From Pseudomonadales bacterium (lineage in GTDB: Bacteria > Pseudomonadota > Gammaproteobacteria > Pseudomonadales > Azotimanducaceae), in assembly GCA_050486425.1 (NCBI GenBank), contig JBJHDG010000001.1, forward strand, positions 1-26,989: a stretch of 26,989 nt of DNA. Direction: 5' to 3'. The notes below the pieces were generated by a model. That model did not search any database and was not told the origin of the DNA. It saw only the letters and a program-made list of their open reading frames with translations. Positions 18,702 through 26,989 of this stretch are shown here, piece after piece; position 1 is the stretch's first letter; every line of letters starts with the position of its first letter. The position numbers were made by a program, and so were the translations under genes.

Positions 18702-19312
18702 ACTCAGACAACGTCTACCAGGTTGACCCGCTGCAGCATCGACACCCGGAGCAACCGGCACTGGCGCCCATGTTTCTGCAACGTTGGTCACCGCGGGCCA
18801 TGTCCGGCGCAGCGGTCAGTCAGCAGGACCTGGAGGTGCTGCTGGAAGCGGCACGCTGGGCACCCTCCAGCAACAATGCCCAACCCTGGCGTTTCATTTA
18901 CGGCCACAGAGACACGCCAGCCTGGCAACCCTTGTTCGATCTGCTGCGTCCTGGCAACCAGCTGTGGGCTCATCAGGCTGGCGTACTCATACTCATCATT
19001 GCGCGCACTGCCTTTGAGCGCGACAACGGACCATCACCCACCTACGCCTTCGATACGGGTGCAGCCTGGATGAGCCTGGCGTTGCAGGCGCGGGCACTGA
19101 ATCTGGTGGCTCATGGGATGCGCGGCTTTGATGCCGAGCGGGCGACAATCCAGTATCAGATACCCGCTCTGTACCAGGTACAGGCCATGGTGGCCGTAGG
19201 TCATCCTGGGCAGATCGCAGACCTGCCCGCGGAGCTGCAGACCAGAGAAGTCCCATCACAGCGCAAGCCATTGGCCGCACTGATCAGTAACGGCCAGTTT
19301 GTCTGGGACTAG
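18698..19312 (+). CDS. Nitroreductase family protein
   Basis: RWSPRAM, LLEAARWAPSSNNAQPWRF, FDTGAAWMSLALQARALNLVAHGMRGFD. ATGA overlap with marR. Confidence 0.92.
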   Translation: MNSDNVYQVDPLQHRHPEQPALAPMFLQRWSPRAMSGAAVSQQDLEVLLEAARWAPSSNNAQPWRFIYGHRDTPAWQPLFDLLRPGNQLWAHQAGVLILIIARTAFERDNGPSPTYAFDTGAAWMSLALQARALNLVAHGMRGFDAERATIQYQIPALYQVQAMVAVGHPGQIADLPAELQTREVPSQRKPLAALISNGQFVWD

Positions 19313-19698
19313 CGGGTTTCGGCCAGGTGTCTTTCGCGTTTTTCGTAACGTTCCTGGGCTTCTACCGACAATGTTGCAATGGGTCTGGCTTCAAGGCGCG
19401 GAATGCCAATAGGCTCTCCGGTTTCCTCGCAATAGCCGTAACTACCGTCCTCGATGCGATTTAATGCCTCATCGATCTTCTTCAGCAGTTTTCGTTGCCG
19501 GTCACGCACCCGCAATTCAATGGCGTGGTCACTTTCAATAGTGGCGCGGTCGGCTTCATCACCGATCTCCCGGTTCGATTCACTGCGCAGGCCTTCAATG
19601 GTGGCGTCAGCTTCCTGAAGGATTTCCTGGCGCCAGTTGAGCAACTTGTTTTTGAAATACGCCAGTTGCTCCGGCGTCATATAGGGTTCCTGCTTCAT
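19309..19698 (-). CDS. dksA: RNA polymerase-binding transcription factor DksA, one-Cys (probably non-zinc) type
   Basis: EPYMTPEQLAYFK, coiled-coil tip GDEADRA (DxxD), ELRVRDRQRKLLKKIDEAL, GSYGYCEETGEPIGIPRLEARPIATLSVEAQE. Confidence 0.95.
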   Translation of the reverse strand: MKQEPYMTPEQLAYFKNKLLNWRQEILQEADATIEGLRSESNREIGDEADRATIESDHAIELRVRDRQRKLLKKIDEALNRIEDGSYGYCEETGEPIGIPRLEARPIATLSVEAQERYEKRERHLAETR

Positions 19699-19906
19699 CG
19701 CCTGGTATCTTCTCGCCTCTTAGGTTGCGCCTATTATTGCGCTTGGGTGGATGGTTACGCCGCTACGTTGGTTGGCAGCGGCTGCGGAATATGACCACGG
19801 CCACGCTGCCCTGTCCAGTTAGAAACAGATTTTTTTCGCGACCACAACAACAGTAGCCAGTGCTTTGAAATTGTCCAGGCAACAGGCTGGGCAAGCCAGC
19901 CCGGCA

Positions 19907-19923
19907 GTGTTATTTTATATCAC
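19907..19923. promoter_or_regulatory. Putative Zur box upstream of zrgA
   Basis: GTGTTAT-TTT-ATATCAC, one mismatch from TGTTAT-N3-ATAACA, ending 32 bp before the start of a zinc-uptake-family gene. Confidence 0.7.
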
Positions 19924-19955
19924 CCATCAGAGTCCGGTGCTGGAAGGGGTTCCAC

Positions 19956-20588
19956 ATGCTATGCCAATCTGTACGCAACCTGATGCCTGCGGTTCGCCCT
20001 GATTTATGCCATGCGTTGGCGCTCACAGCCCTGCTGCTGCCACTAACCACCTGGGGCGGCGCCGGACATAGCCATGAGCACGGTGTTGCAACGTTGAACC
20101 TGGCGTTAAGCCCATACCAGGTGCACTTGGAGTTTCTCAGCCCGGCCTACAACCTGCTGGGATTTGAACATGCGCCACAGACGCAGGCCCAGCAAACAGC
20201 TGTTAACCAGATGCTGACAGCACTGGCGGATGGTCATCTGTTCAATTTGCAAGGTGGCGGCTGCATCCTGGAAAGCCATGCGCTGGAAACCGGCTTTACC
20301 AAGGCGGATATGCCACGCCACGGCAATGAGCCGGGGCATGAACATAAACATGGTCATGCCCATCACGATCATCAGCACCTGCATGACGAACCCACCAACG
20401 CAGCCGGGTTTCATGACTTGCTGTTGCTGCTTGGTTACAACTGCGACGCCGTACCGGAACGGCTATCCATAGCGCCGCTGCTGGCGCAGTTTCCGGCCAT
20501 TGCACAGCTTCAGGTCCAGGTGGTGGGTATGCAGGGTCAGCGGGCACAGCAGTTGACGCCAGCGCAGCCAGTGATCAGGCTGCGCTAG
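19956..20588 (+). CDS. zrgA: ZrgA-family (DUF2796) His-rich periplasmic zinc uptake protein
   Basis: Signal-like N-terminus, HSHEHGVATLNLA, SPAYNLLGFEHAP, His tract at 20319-20384 (10 His in 22 residues), Cys pair GC...YNC. Confidence 0.82.
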   Translation: MLCQSVRNLMPAVRPDLCHALALTALLLPLTTWGGAGHSHEHGVATLNLALSPYQVHLEFLSPAYNLLGFEHAPQTQAQQTAVNQMLTALADGHLFNLQGGGCILESHALETGFTKADMPRHGNEPGHEHKHGHAHHDHQHLHDEPTNAAGFHDLLLLLGYNCDAVPERLSIAPLLAQFPAIAQLQVQVVGMQGQRAQQLTPAQPVIRLR

Positions 20589-20594
20589 CTGGCA

Positions 20595-21110
20595 TCAATC
20601 GTCCCACTCATAGATTTCAATACGCTCGGCCAGCATGCTGTACCCGGCATGAGCCAATTCTGACTCGGAGTGCTGCACCTGCAAACGGCCGGTAATCCAG
20701 AAGGCATTCCACTCCGGCTCATCCAGCACCTGAGGCTGCGCCAGCCGCACATGCACGATCTGATTGGACGGCGGCGGCGGCACATGGATGCAGGCGCCAA
20801 GGTACGGCACGAATAAAAACTCTGCCACACGCCGACCATCCATTTTCAGCGGCACCACGAAACCCGGCAGGCGCACCAGCAGGTTATCCAGGCCGGGCAC
20901 CACAGGCGCGTCCGGCGCCAGCTGCTCCATCATCACCATCTCGAAGTAGTCGTGCTCCATGATATCCGGCATGGGGGGCAACCAGTCTTCCGGCATCATG
21001 TCATCCCAACTGATTTCCAGTGGCGCCTCCGCCAGTACGGGCGAGGCCAGCAGACAGCACAGCAGCAGCACCCAGATAGACATGCCTGCTTGGGTTTTCC
21101 CATTCGACAT
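20595..21110 (-). CDS. DUF3299-family exported protein (ZrgD-like)
   Basis: Signal peptide, ISWDD, VRLPGFVVPL, FLFVPYLGACIHVPPPPSNQIVHV, WITGRL. Start may be the second Met (MSIWV). Confidence 0.85.
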   Translation of the reverse strand: MSNGKTQAGMSIWVLLLCCLLASPVLAEAPLEISWDDMMPEDWLPPMPDIMEHDYFEMVMMEQLAPDAPVVPGLDNLLVRLPGFVVPLKMDGRRVAEFLFVPYLGACIHVPPPPSNQIVHVRLAQPQVLDEPEWNAFWITGRLQVQHSESELAHAGYSMLAERIEIYEWDD

Positions 21111-21133
21111 CGGTAACTCAACTCCGGCCCAAA

Positions 21134-22390
21134 CTAAAGGCGCATAGACAGTCCATCAGCCAACGAATTCCGCAAGGCGCGCCAGGCCGGGACCAGACCG
21201 ATCAGAAACGCACCAGCCACCACGGCCAGCAGCATATACAATTCCCGCGGTGTGGGCGCCTGCAGCGCCAGATAAATGCCAAATCGCGCCTCCACCCAGC
21301 CCTGGGCCAGCGCCATGCCGGCATAGGCCAACAGCCAGCCTGTCACAGCACCACACAGCCCCAGCAAGGTGCTTTCCGCCAGCAACAGGGCAAAGATATA
21401 ACGCGGTTTCGCCCCCAACGCGCGCAGCACGGCCATTTCACGGCGCCGCTCATTCAAGCCGGCCAGAATGCCGATCAGCATGCCGGTCAGTCCGGTCAAC
21501 ACCACCATGGCAGCCACCATCAGCAAGGCCCGCTCGGCAATCCGCAGCAATCCCCAAAGCTCCTGTAGCGCAGCTGCAGGCAGAATGGCCAGCAGGGGTT
21601 CATCGCGAAACTGATTGATGGCGCGTTGCATACGAAAAATTTGCATGGGCTCATGCATACCCAGCAGGAAAGCCGTAATCGCTTGGGGTTGCAGGTCTGC
21701 GGCGACCAACTCATCCGCCTGGGGCAAGGCGCCAGGAATCCGGGTACCGGATTCCCAACCAATATGGATCGCCTCCATGCCCGCCAGACTGATATGCACA
21801 CCCTGATCCACCGGCGTCCCCGTATGCGCCAGGATGCCAACCACCTGGAACGGCAGGTTATCGTGCGCTGCAAAACTGCCATGACCCAAGCCGTGGCTGA
21901 TAACAATCTCCTGCCCCAGGCGATAACCCAAGGCTTCGGCCACGTTGGCACCCAGCACCACATCCAACACTTCCACAAAGGGGCCACCCTGGGCAAAGTG
22001 CAGCGCGCGATTCTGGCCGTAGCGGTAGTGGGTAAAATAATCGCCGGTGGTGCCAATCACCCGATAGCCACGATGAGAATCACCCAGACTGAGCGGAATG
22101 GACCAGGCAACATGGGGATGGCCCTTGATACGTTCGTAGCTGGCCCAGCTGATATTGTTGGTGGCGCTGCCCATACGAAAGACAGAGTACAGCAGCAGCT
22201 GAATCTGGCCCGTGCGTGCGCCCACAATCAAATCGGCGCCCGACACCGTATTCAGAAAACTGCTGCGGGTTTCCGTACGCACCTTTTCCACCGCCAACAG
22301 CAAAGCCACAGCCAACGCGATGGCCAGCACGCTAAGCACCAGATTTCCGCGCCGGTCCCAGATACTGGCCAGAATCAGCCGCGTCAGCAT
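21134..22390 (-). CDS. MacB/FtsX-type ABC permease (ZrgC-like)
   Basis: TM1, large periplasmic domain (GADLIVGARTGQIQLLLYSVF, PLSLGDSHRGYRVIGT), then ERRREMAVLRALGA and three TM helices. Confidence 0.88.
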   Translation of the reverse strand: MLTRLILASIWDRRGNLVLSVLAIALAVALLLAVEKVRTETRSSFLNTVSGADLIVGARTGQIQLLLYSVFRMGSATNNISWASYERIKGHPHVAWSIPLSLGDSHRGYRVIGTTGDYFTHYRYGQNRALHFAQGGPFVEVLDVVLGANVAEALGYRLGQEIVISHGLGHGSFAAHDNLPFQVVGILAHTGTPVDQGVHISLAGMEAIHIGWESGTRIPGALPQADELVAADLQPQAITAFLLGMHEPMQIFRMQRAINQFRDEPLLAILPAAALQELWGLLRIAERALLMVAAMVVLTGLTGMLIGILAGLNERRREMAVLRALGAKPRYIFALLLAESTLLGLCGAVTGWLLAYAGMALAQGWVEARFGIYLALQAPTPRELYMLLAVVAGAFLIGLVPAWRALRNSLADGLSMRL

Positions 22391-23100
22391 GAAGCTTCCT
22401 CAAAGGGTGCCTGGTTCAATGCCCGCATATCCAATATCTGATCAAAATGCTGCGCCAACCCCGGATCATGGCTGACAAACAACAAGGTGGTGCCGGCACT
22501 GTCACAGGCCGCCAGCAACAGCTCCATAAAGCGCTGGCGGGCATCAGTATCCAGCGCTGAGGTGGGCTCGTCTGCAATCAGCAGCGCCGGCGCTCCCATC
22601 AATGCCCGCGCCACCGCCACCCGCTGTTGCTGGCCGATGCTCAACTCCCGGGGTGTGCGCCGGCGCAGGTTATCCGTGGGCAGCCCCAGCTGCGCCAGTA
22701 ACGCCTGGGCCTGGGCCACCGGACCACCCGCAGCGCGGCTGCGGCGTAAGCGGGAAAAGTGACAAGGTAGCAGCAGGTTATCCAACAGCGACAGATAGGG
22801 CACCAGATTGAATTGCTGAAAGACGAACCCTATGTGATCAGCCCGAAAGGTATCCCGGGCCGGGCCACCCAGCGCAGCCAGCGACTGGCCCAGCACCCGC
22901 AGCTCACCACAGCTGGGCGTCAGCACCCCACCAATCAATCCCAGCAAAGTGGACTTGCCACTGCCACTGGGGCCGCGCAAAAACACCCGACTGCCCGCGG
23001 CTACCGACAACGCCGGCACCGACAACACCTCCGGCTGCCCAGGCTGCCAGCGAAACCCCAACGCCTCAATTTCAATAATGGCCGCGCGCTGATCAGACAC
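22384..23100 (-). CDS. ABC ATP-binding protein, LolD/MacB-type (ZrgB-like)
   Basis: Walker A GPSGSGKST, IGFVFQQFNLVPYL, signature LSIGQQQRVAVARAL, Walker B LIADEPTSALD, VSHD. Probable GTG start at 23100, since the ORF track's 23157 start runs into the promoter region. Confidence 0.9.
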   Translation of the reverse strand: MSDQRAAIIEIEALGFRWQPGQPEVLSVPALSVAAGSRVFLRGPSGSGKSTLLGLIGGVLTPSCGELRVLGQSLAALGGPARDTFRADHIGFVFQQFNLVPYLSLLDNLLLPCHFSRLRRSRAAGGPVAQAQALLAQLGLPTDNLRRRTPRELSIGQQQRVAVARALMGAPALLIADEPTSALDTDARQRFMELLLAACDSAGTTLLFVSHDPGLAQHFDQILDMRALNQAPFEEASC

Positions 23101-23176
23101 TCTGTGACCCCTGCTCCCTGGGGAAGCCCTCACAACGCCTGATGGTATAACAACCACCCCCGCAGGTCCCCATCAC

Positions 23177-23191
23177 TGTTACCTTGTAACA
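23177..23191. promoter_or_regulatory. Putative Zur box 1 in the divergent intergenic region
   Basis: Perfect 6-3-6 palindrome TGTTAC-CTT-GTAACA. Confidence 0.72.
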
Positions 23192-23211
23192 CGAGCCAGT
23201 AATAATATAAC
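23184..23211 (+). promoter_or_regulatory. Candidate sigma70 promoter for the barrel-znuABC-like operon
   Basis: TTGTAA (23184-23189), 16-bp spacer, TATAAC (23206-23211). Both hexamers lie inside the two putative Zur boxes. Confidence 0.4.
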
Positions 23212-23216
23212 ATTTC
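23198..23216. promoter_or_regulatory. Putative Zur box 2 in the divergent intergenic region
   Basis: AGTAAT-AAT-ATAACATTTC. The right half matches the extended gammaproteobacterial Zur consensus ATAACATTTC. Confidence 0.7.
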
Positions 23217-23272
23217 TGCCGAGGCCGAGAGCCGCCACTTTTTCCGCATCAACCATGAATCAGGGGATACCC

Positions 23273-24613
23273 ATGAAAACAGCAAACCGCCTTATTCCCG
23301 GCGTGCTGGCGCTGGCACTGGCAGCGCCAGCAACTTCACTGCAGGCCCAGCCAGAAACGGCAGCCGGCGCACAAAGCAGCAATCTCTTTAATCCCGCTAT
23401 GTCGGTCATCATTAATGGCGTCTACTACAGCGACAACCGTCATGGTGAAGGTGCCGGCCTGACACTGGCGGCGGATGGCTTTGCCGGCGGTCACAGCCAT
23501 GGGCATGATCATGGCCAGGGTCATGGCAGCCTCGAGCGCGGCTTCAACCTGCAGGAAGTGGAATTCGCCTTTTCCGCCAGCGTTGATGCCTATTTCGACG
23601 CCTTTGTGATGGCCGCACTGACGGACGGTGAGCTGGAACTGGAAGAAGCCTTTGTCACCACCCGCAACCTGCCAGCCGGTGTACAAGCCAAGTTTGGTAA
23701 GTTCCTGAGCGATGTGGGCTATATCAACAAACAGCATCCTCACAGCTGGCATTTCGTCGAGCGCCCTTTGGTCAACGCGCTGCTGTTTGGTGATCATGGT
23801 CTGCAGGAGTTGGGTGTGCAGCTCAGTTGGTTGGCGCCCACCGACAATTATCTGCGCCTGGGTGCAGAAGTGCTGCAGGGCGAATCCAACGGCATTGCCC
23901 AGTACCTGGGTGAAGCCGAAACCATAGCCGGTACCGCGCGTATTCTTAGCGAAGTCAGCGGTCCACGCCTGTTTACCGGCTTCGCCAAGTACGCACCCGA
24001 TCTGGGTTTTGATCATGCCGTACAACTGGGTTTTTCTCTGGGCTATTCCCGCAGCTATCAAAACAGCGTGGAACACAGCACCAGATATGAAGATCATGAT
24101 GGCACTGCCCAATTCTACGGTTTCGACCTGGTGTACAAACACACCCCAGGCGGTCGCACGTACGGCCAGTGGCTGGCCCAGTTTGAATATTTTCACCGCA
24201 AGCGCAGCATTGACCGCCGGGATGTTTATTTTGCCTGTCATCCTGCCGATCTTGACTGCACGGACCCAGGCAATGAATGGCAGATTGGCGATGTGCGCAA
24301 TGAACAGTCCTTCAGCGAAAAACAGGATGGTTACTATCTGGACGTGCTTTATGGCTTTGCGCCTCGCTGGTACGGCGGTCTGCGCTGGGAGCAGGTGGGC
24401 CTCACCAACAAATCCGGACGCGGCAGTGGCGAAAGCTGGGATGATAGCCGTCGTCTGTCCGCCGCACTAAGCTTTGCGCCTACCGAATTCTCCCGTCTGC
24501 GATTGCAACTGGCGCGCGCTGATGTCGCTGTTGATGACCACCGGGACAAACTCAATCAGGTTTTCCTACAATTCCAAATGAGCCTGGGTGCCCATGGCGC
24601 CCACGAGTTTTAA
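23273..24613 (+). CDS. Zinc-regulated outer-membrane beta-barrel protein (family often labelled 'zinc-regulated TonB-dependent receptor')
   Basis: Signal peptide, FNPAMSVIING, His tract HSHGHDHGQGH, FNLQEVEFAFSASVDAYF, GKFLSDVGYINKQHPHSWHFVERP, C-terminal QFQMSLGAHGAHEF. ATG 23273 has the better RBS; 23255 is an alternative start. Confidence 0.8.
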   Translation: MKTANRLIPGVLALALAAPATSLQAQPETAAGAQSSNLFNPAMSVIINGVYYSDNRHGEGAGLTLAADGFAGGHSHGHDHGQGHGSLERGFNLQEVEFAFSASVDAYFDAFVMAALTDGELELEEAFVTTRNLPAGVQAKFGKFLSDVGYINKQHPHSWHFVERPLVNALLFGDHGLQELGVQLSWLAPTDNYLRLGAEVLQGESNGIAQYLGEAETIAGTARILSEVSGPRLFTGFAKYAPDLGFDHAVQLGFSLGYSRSYQNSVEHSTRYEDHDGTAQFYGFDLVYKHTPGGRTYGQWLAQFEYFHRKRSIDRRDVYFACHPADLDCTDPGNEWQIGDVRNEQSFSEKQDGYYLDVLYGFAPRWYGGLRWEQVGLTNKSGRGSGESWDDSRRLSAALSFAPTEFSRLRLQLARADVAVDDHRDKLNQVFLQFQMSLGAHGAHEF

Positions 24614-24625
24614 TCGGGGCACATC

Positions 24626-25522
24626 ATGAATCGCTTATGGTTGCTGCGACTAATCCTGCTACCCGTCCTGCTACCTGGTTTGAGCCTGGCGGAGACGCCC
24701 CTGCGCGTGGCCGCCACCACCCCCAACATGGCCATGCTGGCACGCACAGTCGGTGGCTCAGCAGTGACCGTGCAGACACTGGCACCTGGCGATCGGGATG
24801 TGCATTACCTGGAAGCCCGGCCCAGCATGCTGGCGCACCTGCGCCGCGCAGACTTGGTCGTGGCGGTGGGTGCCGATCTGGAAGCGGGCTGGCTGCCTGT
24901 TGCCCTGCAACGGGCCGCCAATCCCGCCATTCAGCCGGGACGCAGCGGCTATCTGGCGCTGGCGGAACATCTGGATCTGCTGGCAGCAGACCAACCTGCG
25001 GATCGCGCCCTGGGTGATGTGCACCCCCTGGGCAATCCACATTTTTACTATGATCCGCAGCGCATGGCGCTGGCAGCCCAGCTGCTGGCAACACGCCTGG
25101 GTGAGTTACGCCCTGAGACCGCCGCAGACTTTCAGCAGCGGGCAGACGCCTTTGCCCAACTCATCAACAGTCAACTGCCCCACTGGCAAACCCGCAGCGC
25201 CCAGGCACCAGGCGCCGTGCTCTACCATAAAAATGCGGTCTATCTGCTGGAGCGATTTCAGATCCCGGTCCTGGCCTATATAGAACCCCTGCCCGGTATT
25301 CCCCCCAGCGGTCGCCATCTGCGCCACCTGGTACAGCAGTTGCGCTCCCGCCAAGGCGTGATTCTGCATCTGGTGTTCGAACCCGCTCGGGGACCCGCGT
25401 TTCTCAGTCGCCAACTGGGTTGGCCGGTGCATGTCATGCACGGCGAAGTTGCGCCGGACGGCAGCGCTGAGGATTATGTCGCCCTTATCGATGGCTGGAT
25501 CACCGCCTTGGAGCCACGTTGA
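24626..25522 (+). CDS. Metal ABC transporter substrate-binding protein (ZnuA/TroA cluster A-I)
   Basis: Signal peptide, VAATTP, DVHYLEARPS, GADLEAGWL, GDVHPLGNPHFYYDP, LYHKN. Three His positions fit a Zn-type site. Confidence 0.9.
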   Translation: MNRLWLLRLILLPVLLPGLSLAETPLRVAATTPNMAMLARTVGGSAVTVQTLAPGDRDVHYLEARPSMLAHLRRADLVVAVGADLEAGWLPVALQRAANPAIQPGRSGYLALAEHLDLLAADQPADRALGDVHPLGNPHFYYDPQRMALAAQLLATRLGELRPETAADFQQRADAFAQLINSQLPHWQTRSAQAPGAVLYHKNAVYLLERFQIPVLAYIEPLPGIPPSGRHLRHLVQQLRSRQGVILHLVFEPARGPAFLSRQLGWPVHVMHGEVAPDGSAEDYVALIDGWITALEPR

Positions 25523-26109
25523 GCGTTACACCGCAGCCCTCACTTACGGCAGCCACCACCTTACTGACGCTGCATGACCTGTGCGCCGGCTACCGCGCGC
25601 CCGTGGTGGGCCCCATCTCCCTGCAGATTCAGGCCGGAGAGATTGTTGGCTTGAGTGGCGTCAATGGCAGTGGCAAAACCACACTGCTGAAAGCCATCAC
25701 CGGCCAGGCCAGAATTTTTGCTGGCAGCGTACAGCGGCAGCCCGGCCTGCAACTGGCGTATCTGCGCCAGCACCCGGAACGACCACCGGAACTGCCACTG
25801 ACTGGCAGCGAAGTCATCGCGCTTGCCCAAGCAACGATCGCCCAACAGCCGGAGCGCCTGGCGGCCCTATCCCATCTGTGTCTGGATGAAATGAGTGGCG
25901 GCCAGTATCAGTTGCTGAAAACCTGGTGCGCACTGGCTGGTCCGGCGCAGTTGGTGTTGCTGGATGAGCCCACCAACAATCTGGATCAGGATGCCATGGA
26001 TCTGCTTCTGACCCAGTTGCGCACGCTGGCGCCGACGCGGGCGGTGCTCCTGGTAAGTCACGAACAGCTCTTTTTGACCAACGCCTGTTCCCGGCTGGTG
26101 CAGCTGTGA
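25519..26109 (+). CDS. Metal ABC transporter ATP-binding protein (ZnuC-like, short)
   Basis: GVNGSGKTT, MSGGQ, LLDEPTNNLD, VSHE. TTG start overlaps the upstream TGA, with GGAG 5 nt upstream. Confidence 0.87.
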   Translation: MSVTPQPSLTAATTLLTLHDLCAGYRAPVVGPISLQIQAGEIVGLSGVNGSGKTTLLKAITGQARIFAGSVQRQPGLQLAYLRQHPERPPELPLTGSEVIALAQATIAQQPERLAALSHLCLDEMSGGQYQLLKTWCALAGPAQLVLLDEPTNNLDQDAMDLLLTQLRTLAPTRAVLLVSHEQLFLTNACSRLVQL

Positions 26110-26912
26110 ACCTGCTCTGGGACCCATTGTTCCGCATCCCCCTGGCCACCGGCCTGATGTTGGCACTGCTACTGCCGCTACTGGGCGCCGGGCTGCGCCT
26201 GCGTCAGCAATGGCTGGCGGGACTGGGGCTGACGCAAATGGCGGCTGCTGGCGCCGTCTTGGCCGCGCTGCTGCATCTGCCCTTGCTGCTGGGTGGCGGC
26301 CTGACCGCGTTGGCGGCCGCAGCACTGCGGGTGCTCAGCGGCGAACCCCGCAACGAACACTACGCACTGATGCTGCTGGTGGGCTGGGCGGGCGTGCTGC
26401 TGTTGGCAATGCAGGGTCATCATGCGGATGCCCTGGTGGATACAGTGCTGAATGGACAACTGTATTTTACCGACAGCGCCCAACTGATGGGCGCCAGCCT
26501 GGTAACGCTGACAGTGCTGGCGGCTGGCACCTGGCTCAGCCGTCGCCTGCTGCTGTCACGACTTTTCCCTGCGCATTTTCAGGCCAATCAGCAGTCGGTT
26601 TGGCCCCACGAATTCACCTTCGACCTGCTGCTGGTGGCCGGGTTGGTGCTGGCCGTAACCAGCATGGGTGTGATGGCCAGTTTCGCGCTGCTGTTCGTCC
26701 CGCCCTGGGTGGCGTTCCGCCTGGCCCGGGGGCTACGCATGACGCTTTGGCTCTGCGTGGGGCTGGGTAGCGCTGCCTATCTGGCAAGCTTCGCGATCGC
26801 CTTGTGGTTGGATTTGCCCTTTGGCCCGGTGCTGGTTGCCGCCTGCTGTGCGCTGGCGCCACTGCGCTGGTTGGGTCGTATTGGATGGATTGGTCGGGAC
26901 GGCAGGATTTGA
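26106..26912 (+). CDS. Metal ABC transporter permease (ZnuB-like)
   Basis: Multiple hydrophobic helices, GLTQMAAAG, LNGQLYF, GVMASFALLFVP. GTGA overlap with the ATPase gene. The last codons fall inside the tRNA remnant. Confidence 0.85.
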   Translation: MNLLWDPLFRIPLATGLMLALLLPLLGAGLRLRQQWLAGLGLTQMAAAGAVLAALLHLPLLLGGGLTALAAAALRVLSGEPRNEHYALMLLVGWAGVLLLAMQGHHADALVDTVLNGQLYFTDSAQLMGASLVTLTVLAAGTWLSRRLLLSRLFPAHFQANQQSVWPHEFTFDLLLVAGLVLAVTSMGVMASFALLFVPPWVAFRLARGLRMTLWLCVGLGSAAYLASFAIALWLDLPFGPVLVAACCALAPLRWLGRIGWIGRDGRI

Positions 26913-26940
26913 ACCTGCGACCACCACACCCCCAGTGTGG
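26891..26940 (-). pseudogene. 3' fragment (50 bp) of tRNA-Pro(GGG)
   Basis: Minus strand reads CCACA-CTGGGGG-TGTGG (anticodon arm, GGG), TGGTC, GCAGG-TTCAAAT-CCTGC (T arm), CGTCCCG-A-CCA. The D arm and 5' acceptor strand are absent. Confidence 0.85.
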
Positions 26941-26989
26941 GATACCAAGTTAAACACCTATATAAATCAAAATGTTACGCCATTCTGGA
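26891..26989. mobile_element. Probable att end of a tRNA-Pro-integrated element extending to the right of the window
   Basis: Truncated tRNA 3' copy followed abruptly by AT-rich DNA (16 of 49 bases G+C at 26941-26989). No integrase is visible in the window. Confidence 0.65.

Follow-up and report, generated by a model that had tools for sequence, protein, structure and literature searches.

A probable chromosomal Zur regulon stretch of three modules in an uncultured Pseudomonadales bacterium, with a predicted plug-less porin encoded ahead of a ZnuA-type importer

Positions 19309-26912 (7.6 kb) of a contig from an uncultured Pseudomonadales bacterium carry nine contiguous genes with almost no spacer between them, and the question raised by this locus is whether the nine genes form one pathway or several modules. 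The window, by which we mean the whole stretch of DNA analysed (26,989 nucleotides), is the entire contig C1 of a metagenome-assembled genome of 2.58 Mb in 420 contigs, about 94% complete. The original prediction, made from the sequence alone, described a zinc-starvation island of nine contiguous genes and proposed that they may be a full envelope pathway. In this study, we assigned gene families by Pfam, NCBIfam and PDB sequence search, and found all nine genes present and contiguous. Our analysis indicates that the cluster is very likely a chromosomal stretch of the Zur regulon made of three modules, each distributed independently in other genomes: a gene for a DksA2-type DksA paralogue (module 1), a Zrg/PA4063-PA4066-type module (module 2) and a porin-Znu operon (module 3). 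All gene families here are known members of Zur regulons, and every module has a named counterpart. The locus adds an example of known zinc-regulon modules and no new kind of system.

To compare gene neighbourhoods, 80 loci carrying a homologous porin gene were collected, and zrg-type, dksA2 and zur neighbours were counted within 6 kb. We found zrg-type genes at 10 of these loci, dksA2-like genes at 6 and zur at 9. These low co-occurrences suggest that the modules travel separately and come to lie side by side in some genomes, which is the expected behaviour of co-regulated genes. At 70 of the 80 loci, and in all three other contexts examined, the porin-Znu operon has no zrg genes beside it, and two further loci (L103 and L105, both on short contigs) hold a zrg module without an adjacent porin operon. 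Thus the description of the region as a multi-system island was right, with three modules found, and the proposal of a full envelope pathway is not supported, given the porin loci that lack zrg genes and the zrg loci that lack an adjacent porin.

The features of the cluster are as follows; lengths of proteins are in amino acids (aa), and ABC stands for ATP-binding cassette.

19309-19698, minus strand: DksA2-type DksA paralogue by sequence, 129 aa (PF21157 and PF01258; TIGR02420 at 149.7 bits; best PDB match 4IJJ)
19908-19922: Zur-box-like palindrome 1 (TGTTATTTTATATCA), separated by 34 bp from the zrgA ATG downstream and by 210 bp from the dksA2 start
19956-20588, plus strand: periplasmic zinc-binding protein of the ZrgA/PA4063 type, with the His-rich loop HEHKHGHAHHDHQH (PF10986, E 1.1e-36)
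20595-21110, minus strand: exported DUF3299 protein of the ZrgE/PA4066 type with the motif GACIHVPPPPSNQIVH (PF11736; 4HSP, E 1.7e-33)
21134-22390, minus strand: MacB-type ABC permease with FtsX and MacB periplasmic core domains (PF02687 and PF12704)
22384-23100 (or 23157), minus strand: ABC ATPase of the MacB-type pair (PF00005; best NCBIfam matches YbbA, LolD and MacB-type ATPases)
23139-23151: weak third half-site (CTGATGGTATAAC) with 2 mismatches to GTTATNNTATAAC, intergenic only if the ATPase starts at 23100
23177-23191: Zur-box-like palindrome 2 (TGTTACCTTGTAACA), overlapping the candidate -35 element (TTGTAA) of the porin operon
23198-23212: Zur-box-like palindrome 3 (AGTAATAATATAACA, followed by TTTC), overlapping the candidate -10 element (TATAAC)
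23273-24613, plus strand: outer-membrane porin by predicted model, 446 aa, with no Pfam or NCBIfam family
24626-25522, plus strand: ZnuA-family (cluster A-I) periplasmic binding protein without a His-rich loop (PF01297)
25519-26109, plus strand: short ABC ATPase of the importer, 196 aa (PF00005; best specific NCBIfam match AztA at 101.7 bits, cut-off 220)
26106-26912, plus strand: ABC-3 permease of the importer (PF00950; weak AztB match)

Two of these starts were adjusted. The porin most likely starts at 23273, which gives the recorded product of 446 aa (452 aa from the longer start) and is followed by a good signal peptide. The MacB-type ATPase most likely starts at the GTG at 23100, which gives 238 aa like its closest homologue; the longest open reading frame runs from 23157, and homologues align only from about residue 24.

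The pattern TGTTATAWTATAACA with up to 3 mismatches was searched, with the chance level taken from 100 shuffles. It returned three sites in the window (starting at 19908, 23177 and 23198) against 0.08 in the shuffles, none of which reached three, and only seven such sites in the entire 2.58-Mb genome. The core of these sites, GTTAT-N-ATAAC, is that of the gammaproteobacterial Zur box. No Fur box was found in the window even at up to 6 mismatches. An inverted-repeat search of the intergenic regions found none, because the palindrome arms are short and imperfect. Zur boxes are thus found at zrgA and at the divergent promoter of the MacB-type and porin operons. This divergent control region (23101-23272, roughly 170 bp with the adjusted starts) holds both strong boxes, whose starts lie 21 bp apart, and both overlap a plausible porin-operon promoter read from the sequence, TTGTAA-16-TATAAC. 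A Zur box with up to 3 mismatches was also found upstream of the barrel gene at 23 of the 80 porin loci, and in none of 307 control windows of coding sequence.

The genome encodes two Fur-family proteins. For the copy on contig C132 (169 aa), Zur is the best NCBIfam match at 124.7 bits, which is below the cut-off of 167, and the next family scores 38 bits. This best match suggests that a Zur-type repressor is available in the genome. The grouping of the genes around Zur-like palindromes, as originally predicted, is supported.

Several observations were made around these sites. On contig C132 (L002:1-1917), the Zur-like gene immediately follows the end of a TonB-dependent receptor gene and a gene for an outer-membrane-like protein of 274 aa; this short contig yielded no Zur box. 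Among the four Zur-like sites outside the window, one at C186:3235 (TGTTATAACATCACA) is located 29 bp upstream of the gene for a 172-aa membrane protein with a MerC-like LHC motif and a His/Cys-rich tail. Its sequence makes it a possible additional zinc-regulon protein. At L016:9615-9920 (also at L017), the place of the Zur box is taken by a 101-aa open reading frame of no Pfam family, whose product has a hydrophobic stretch and the His/Cys motifs ..HHALDYH..CQVC...

The least understood part of the cluster is the predicted His-lined outer-membrane pore, whose gene lies almost always directly before a zinc importer. The barrel protein matched no family in Pfam or NCBIfam, with neither Plug nor TonB_dep_Rec reaching threshold, and a profile search against PDB sequences gave no match. 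We built a model from an alignment of 32 sequences (A1), with a predicted local distance difference test (pLDDT) score of 83.8 and a predicted template modelling (pTM) score of 0.82. It shows a plug-less barrel of 16 strands, connected in alternation by short turns and long loops; only about 20 residues separate the signal peptide from the first strand. Foldseek matched the fold to porins only, namely V. cholerae OmpT, OprP/OprO, DcaP, chitoporins and Omp32, with template modelling (TM) scores of about 0.5 and 8-13% identity. The best Swiss-Prot fold match is an uncharacterised Aquifex protein, and the matches in AFDB clusters and Swiss-Prot are otherwise uncharacterised proteins and generic porins. 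In the ESM Atlas, the matches are unnamed clusters or clusters called 'zinc-regulated TonB-dependent receptor'. We rejected this database name for the present protein, which has 446 aa and 16 predicted strands without a plug, and is not a 22-strand barrel. The barrel is predicted to be a 16-strand diffusion-type porin with a long loop after strand 5 and a C-terminal F. The His-bearing outer-membrane barrel of the original prediction can now be described as a predicted plug-less porin with conserved His residues.

The His residues of the porin occur at three places. A His-rich tract (H80-H90, HSHGHDHGQGH) is located in the first long loop, which is external by strand order. The long loop that joins strands 5 and 6, where classical porins have their constriction loop, contains an invariant K-Q-H-P-H-x-W. 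The protein ends in GAHGAHEF, and the invariant tail H-G-A-H-x-F is placed at the periplasmic rim. Among 77 sequences from Gammaproteobacteria, Betaproteobacteria, Acidobacteriota, the Planctomycetes-Verrucomicrobia-Chlamydiae (PVC) group and others, H161, H163, H447, H450 and E103 are invariant (77/77), although the H447/H450 motif was contained in one of the two patterns used to collect the porin loci. E130 and E311 are kept in 76 of the 77 and D358 in 75. The family is large: more than 2000 clusters match at E<=0.001, and members occur in at least 575 species genomes. Of 301 genomes sampled from the class, 78 encode it (77/300 without the unpublished genome G079), which is about a quarter of the sampled Gammaproteobacteria, and it also occurs in Acidobacteriota and the PVC group. 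Cultured bacteria with these operons include Thioalkalivibrio spp., Alcanivorax hongdengensis, Halopseudomonas yangmingensis, Guyparkeria sp. and Agitococcus lubricus.

The porin shares with ZnuD and other Zur-regulated TonB-dependent zinc receptors its place as a zinc-regulon outer-membrane protein and the same kind of database name. It differs from them in its size of about 446 aa, its 16 predicted strands without a plug, and its fold matches to diffusion porins. With OprP/OprO, DcaP and OmpT-type porins it shares the 16-strand barrel and the long loop between strands 5 and 6, whereas the TM score is only about 0.5 and the HPH and HGAHxF motifs are specific to the family described here. Some homologues in alignment A1 (P0012, P0105, P0110 and P0117) carry an N-terminal coiled-coil-like extension, such as EELMRKIEALEERDRERQ. 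By analogy with the periplasmic coiled coil of DcaP, this extension may point to a trimeric porin.

We next consider the importer. A ZnuA-like gene directly follows the barrel gene at 79 of the 80 loci, and the remaining locus ends at a contig edge; all four genes of the module were detected at 51 of the 80. Three unrelated neighbourhoods also carry the four-gene module, one of them with a FUR-family gene next to it, and the ATPases there have 190-198 aa. In the window, the ATPase and ABC-3 permease genes of the importer lie in one operon with a 4-nucleotide overlap. In PDB alignments, the three zinc ligands of Synechocystis ZnuA correspond to H60, H139 and H201 of the binding protein. Of 78 porin-linked homologues, 77-78 retain each of H60, H133, H139 and H201. 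In cluster A-I proteins, a His as the third ligand is the signature of the zinc type, and proteins of the manganese type have a Glu there. The binding protein is the only PF01297 match in the genome, and as the only ZnuA-family system it suggests the main high-affinity zinc route. Its scores and those of its partners lie far below the NCBIfam cut-offs (AztC 67.5 against 350, ZnuA 36 against 268, AztA 101.7 against 220, AztB 29 against 280), which argues for a distinct subfamily.

Compared with ZnuABC of E. coli and Synechocystis and with AztABCD of Paracoccus denitrificans, the system has the same three-His cluster A-I protein, ABC-3 permease, ABC ATPase and zinc-responsive regulation. Unlike them, the binding protein has no His-rich loop and has the extra invariant H133, there is no AztD, and a porin gene leads the operon. 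The literature searched gave no experimental work on this porin family, and no characterised Zur-regulated porin of Gram-negative bacteria was found in it except for omr in an expression table of V. parahaemolyticus. There, zinc limitation raises the expression of omr-znuAII-znuBII (ZnuAII is Vpa1307) by 283- to 1033-fold (PMC9817125; see also PMC3794297 on this cluster). Compared by description, the importer resembles this Vibrio cluster, and relatives of the window barrel share the database name. The Vibrio genes listed include no ATPase, in contrast to the 196-aa ATPase here. Taken together, the predicted ZnuABC-like importer was found, in the form of PF01297, PF00005 and PF00950 genes with a three-His site in a distinct subfamily, and for module 3 the proposed passage from outer-membrane entry to import stands as a coherent route of barrel, binding protein and ABC importer. 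The role of this module is inferred from fold, conserved residues and gene linkage.

Module 2 lies between the other two. ZrgA matches PA4063 (7AHW, E 4.6e-19) and V. cholerae ZrgA (8EZW, E 4.5e-7), and the DUF3299 protein matches PA4066 (4HSP), with its nearest named relatives from Pseudomonas. The prediction of a His-rich ZrgA and a DUF3299 protein was thus confirmed by family (PF10986 with a His-rich loop, and PF11736) and by these solved relatives. In the DUF3299 protein, H53, C107, H109 and H120 are invariant (alignment A2), and in the periplasmic domain of the permease H166, H176 and H209 are invariant (alignment A3, 32 homologues). Together with the His-rich loop of ZrgA, these residues indicate potential metal sites on all three periplasmic parts. 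A complex prediction for the permease domain (residues 38-272, A3) with DUF3299 (33-171, A2) scored 0.00, which speaks neither for nor against binding. The permease has 923 representatives at E<=1e-30. Many of its homologues are 30-150 aa longer and match in two stretches broken near residues 210-230, and this pattern suggests variable insertions in their periplasmic domain.

The ATPase and permease genes are separate and overlap by 7 nucleotides, as a split MacB-type transporter. The zrgA gene is on the opposite strand, convergent with the DUF3299 gene (6-bp gap) and behind its own operator, so the zrg genes do not form one operon. The same layout of zrgA in L103 and L105 indicates a lineage feature and not a local rearrangement. 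For ZrgD (DUF2607), we found no unassigned intergenic gap of sufficient size in the cluster; ZrgD is also missing from PA4063-66 and from some Vibrionaceae (PMC9817125). The module resembles PA4063-PA4066 and ZrgABCDE in its ZrgA with a His loop, split MacB-type ATPase and permease, DUF3299 protein and upstream Zur-type operators (PMC8561739, PMC9820375, PMC9817125, PMC11481552). It differs from both by the convergent zrgA with its own operator. The lack of ZrgD sets it apart from ZrgABCDE and likens it to the Pseudomonas version; sequence identity to the solved Zrg and PA4063-66 proteins is modest.

Module 1 consists of a single gene. Judged from its sequence, the product of 19309-19698 is a DksA2-type, zinc-independent DksA paralogue. 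Its zinc finger reads CEET-x17-SVEA, with one of the four zinc-binding Cys residues left, and the DEADRA tip is intact. The closest solved relative is 4IJJ (E 1.2e-27), and both have C-x-ETGEPIG, against CESCG in E. coli DksA. A canonical C4 DksA (CxxC-x17-CxxC) is encoded on contig C46 in front of a gluQ-like gene, and a third TraR-like gene is on contig C62. The zinc-free type of DksA originally proposed is therefore well founded, with the four-Cys site lost, the DxxDxA tip kept and a canonical DksA elsewhere in the genome. P. aeruginosa DksA2 (PA5536) is the best solved relative, with the same C-x-ETGEPIG in place of CxxC, the same intact tip and a canonical C4 DksA alongside; the aligned DksA2 differs in having two Cys (CQET...CIEA), against one here (CEET...SVEA).

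The region of 257 bp between dksA2 and zrgA holds a single box, palindrome 1, and a second Zur box near dksA2 was searched for and not found. The link of dksA to the Zur palindromes in the original prediction is tentative, because the only intergenic box is far from the dksA2 start and outside its promoter-like site. Unlike this arrangement, the Thioalkalivibrio dksA2 homologues (L027, L061, L067) have a Zur box 50-65 bp upstream. In L103 and L105, which come from a same-genus genome and another close relative, the dksA2 position is occupied by cobW (COG0523, 400 aa), divergent from zrgA, and a near-perfect Zur box (GAATGTTATAACATAACATTTC) lies between the two genes (L103:2948-3055 and L105:1244-1333). 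The presence of cobW in the relatives and dksA2 here suggests that the position beside zrgA is a slot for zinc-sparing genes. Published Zur regulons include genes of the DksA2 type (PMC6103462), and Zur control of dksA2 in this genome would be an inference from the sequence.

The cluster ends close to the contig end. A stretch of 50 nucleotides on the minus strand (26891-26940), just ahead of the AT-rich end of the window, is 100% identical to the 3' part of the intact tRNA-Pro(GGG) gene at C320:2662-2738, and the last 109 nucleotides of the window are identical to the end of the AT-rich contig C116. ARAGORN found no gene at 26891-26989, and a weak Rfam match to the 3' part of tmRNA at the contig end was rejected in favour of the tRNA-Pro(GGG) fragment. 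From this arrangement, an element has probably inserted into tRNA-Pro, and the window end would be its distal, attR-like boundary; the zinc cluster then lies on the chromosomal side. A position of the cluster inside a mobile element was rejected: the orientation of the tRNA fragment places it in the chromosomal flank, no integrase is adjacent, and its G+C content is close to that of the flanks.

These features suggest the following mechanism. When zinc is plentiful, Zur-Zn would bind one operator before zrgA and two tandem operators in the divergent promoter of the MacB-type and porin operons, and its occupancy of this promoter would shut off both operons. Under zinc starvation, the porin-Znu operon would become the main uptake route. 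The 16-strand TonB-independent porin would let Zn2+ cross the outer membrane, helped by the His-rich external loop and by invariant His and acidic residues around the L3-like loop. The ZnuA-type binding protein, with its three-His site, would then take up periplasmic zinc for import by the ABC-3 permease and the short ATPase. ZrgA, DUF3299 and the split MacB-type transporter would act as a second ATP-driven zinc-handling machine, which may in net effect either supply or remove a metal complex. The DksA2-type factor, having no zinc finger, would substitute for the zinc-dependent DksA.

Other readings of the locus were weighed against this one. That all nine genes make one integrated envelope machine, in which the barrel passes zinc through ZrgA/DUF3299 chaperoning to the ZnuA-like importer, is quite unlikely. 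The shared grouping behind Zur-like operators would fit it, as would the ten porin loci with nearby zrg-type genes (at one of them, L065, all eight transport genes are on one strand) and the conserved His sites in ZrgA, DUF3299, the permease domain, the porin and the binding protein. However, the other 70 porin-Znu loci have no zrg-type gene within 6 kb, the two closest readable zrg loci (on short contigs) have no adjacent porin, the zrg module has its own ABC motor, and co-regulated genes are expected to be adjacent without physical coupling. We regard it as very improbable that the cluster responds to a metal other than zinc (Mn, Fe, Co or Ni) or to another Fur-family regulator, with palindromes that are not Zur sites. 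The binding protein scores 59 bits against the Deinococcus MntC model, a weak match beside the 67.5 for AztC, the palindromes deviate from the consensus, and a homologous Pseudomonas system has been linked to cobalt (PMC11481552). Against this stand the Zur-box core of the sites and the lack of a Fur box in the window, the invariant His of zinc type, in place of the Glu of manganese type, as third ligand of the binding protein, the standing of ZrgA, DUF3299 and DksA2 as zinc regulon markers in the literature, and the zur gene near the homologous operon at nine loci. It is also unlikely, though somewhat less so than a single machine, that the barrel conducts a zinc-chelator complex or acts as a general diffusion porin, with no selectivity for Zn2+. 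Its fold matches do include channels for larger solutes (chitoporin and DcaP, with OccD/K at lower TM scores). But the near-obligate downstream partner is a cluster A-I binding protein for the free metal ion, the His and carboxylate residues are invariant, and chelator biosynthesis genes are absent nearby, both here and in the three other contexts.

The direction of the MacB-type module needs separate weighing. The zrg and PA4063-66 genes are Zur-repressed and induced by zinc limitation (PMC9817125, PMC11481552, PMC9820375). Vibrio genetics favours zinc acquisition, with ZrgA acting like a binding protein and zrg mutants growing poorly under zinc limitation (PMC9820375, PMC9817125). In P. aeruginosa, the ATPase-permease pair is read as a MacB exporter of a cobalt-pyochelin complex, and cobalt and pyochelin accumulate in PA4065 mutants (PMC11481552). 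For the MacB-type ABC pair of the original prediction, the families were borne out, and a placement among importers was not, in view of the type VII fold and of the one study that reads an exporter (PMC11481552). It is somewhat unlikely, and still a serious candidate, that the module here exports a metal-chelator complex, such as a cobalt-metallophore, or a zinc-scavenging molecule, and does not acquire zinc directly. The permease has the FtsX plus MacB periplasmic core architecture, a fold which argues against a conventional importer, and the closest solved relatives of ZrgA and DUF3299 are Pseudomonas proteins. Type VII ABC transporters of MacB architecture are not known to carry substrates inward across the membrane. 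On the other side, the cluster has no adaptor (membrane-fusion protein), no outer-membrane exit duct and no gene for chelator (metallophore) biosynthesis, which argues against a classical efflux pump, and direct handling of metal would fit the His and Cys residues conserved in DUF3299 and in the periplasmic domain of the permease. Judged by its sequence, the Zrg module is most likely an ATP-driven machine handling metal on the periplasmic side.

Some points weigh against the reading of three Zur-controlled zinc modules that we prefer. The regulation proposed for all operons here is read from motifs, and each of the three window sites carries 2-3 mismatches. The closest relatives of the porin operon (L020-L024 and L016) have no such box upstream, and the one promoter-like site of dksA2 (19817-19788) does not include the box. 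In the porin, the placement of the His residues comes from strand order with the usual periplasmic termini assumed, and not from coordinates, and the invariance of H447 and H450 is partly an artefact of the search pattern that contained them. The scores of the importer below the cut-offs mean that its substrate specificity rests on ligand residues and context, and published work on Zrg/PA4063-66 is divided between zinc import and cobalt-pyochelin export.

The suggestion that the locus is an under-described system is fair only for the porin and for the Zrg mechanism. The wider view that His-lined plug-less barrels are widespread, dedicated, TonB-independent Zn2+ channels in an obligate pair with a distinct ZnuA subfamily, and that the MacB-type Zrg machine uses ATP to move zinc among periplasmic His/Cys sites (ZrgA, DUF3299 and the permease domain) and not across the membrane, is tentative, and we consider it quite possible though a little short of probable. 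If it is true, the porin family, which databases mislabel as a TonB-dependent receptor, would be the 'missing' outer-membrane step of high-affinity zinc uptake. The questions raised are mechanistic ones, about the selectivity of the porin and the direction of the MacB-type machine. A small genome with a single ZnuA-type importer and the contested Zrg/PA4063-66 machine could be a simple background in which to separate import from export, and a porin gene standing before a zinc importer at 79 of 80 loci of several phyla, with invariant His residues, is a concrete candidate for the outer-membrane zinc step.

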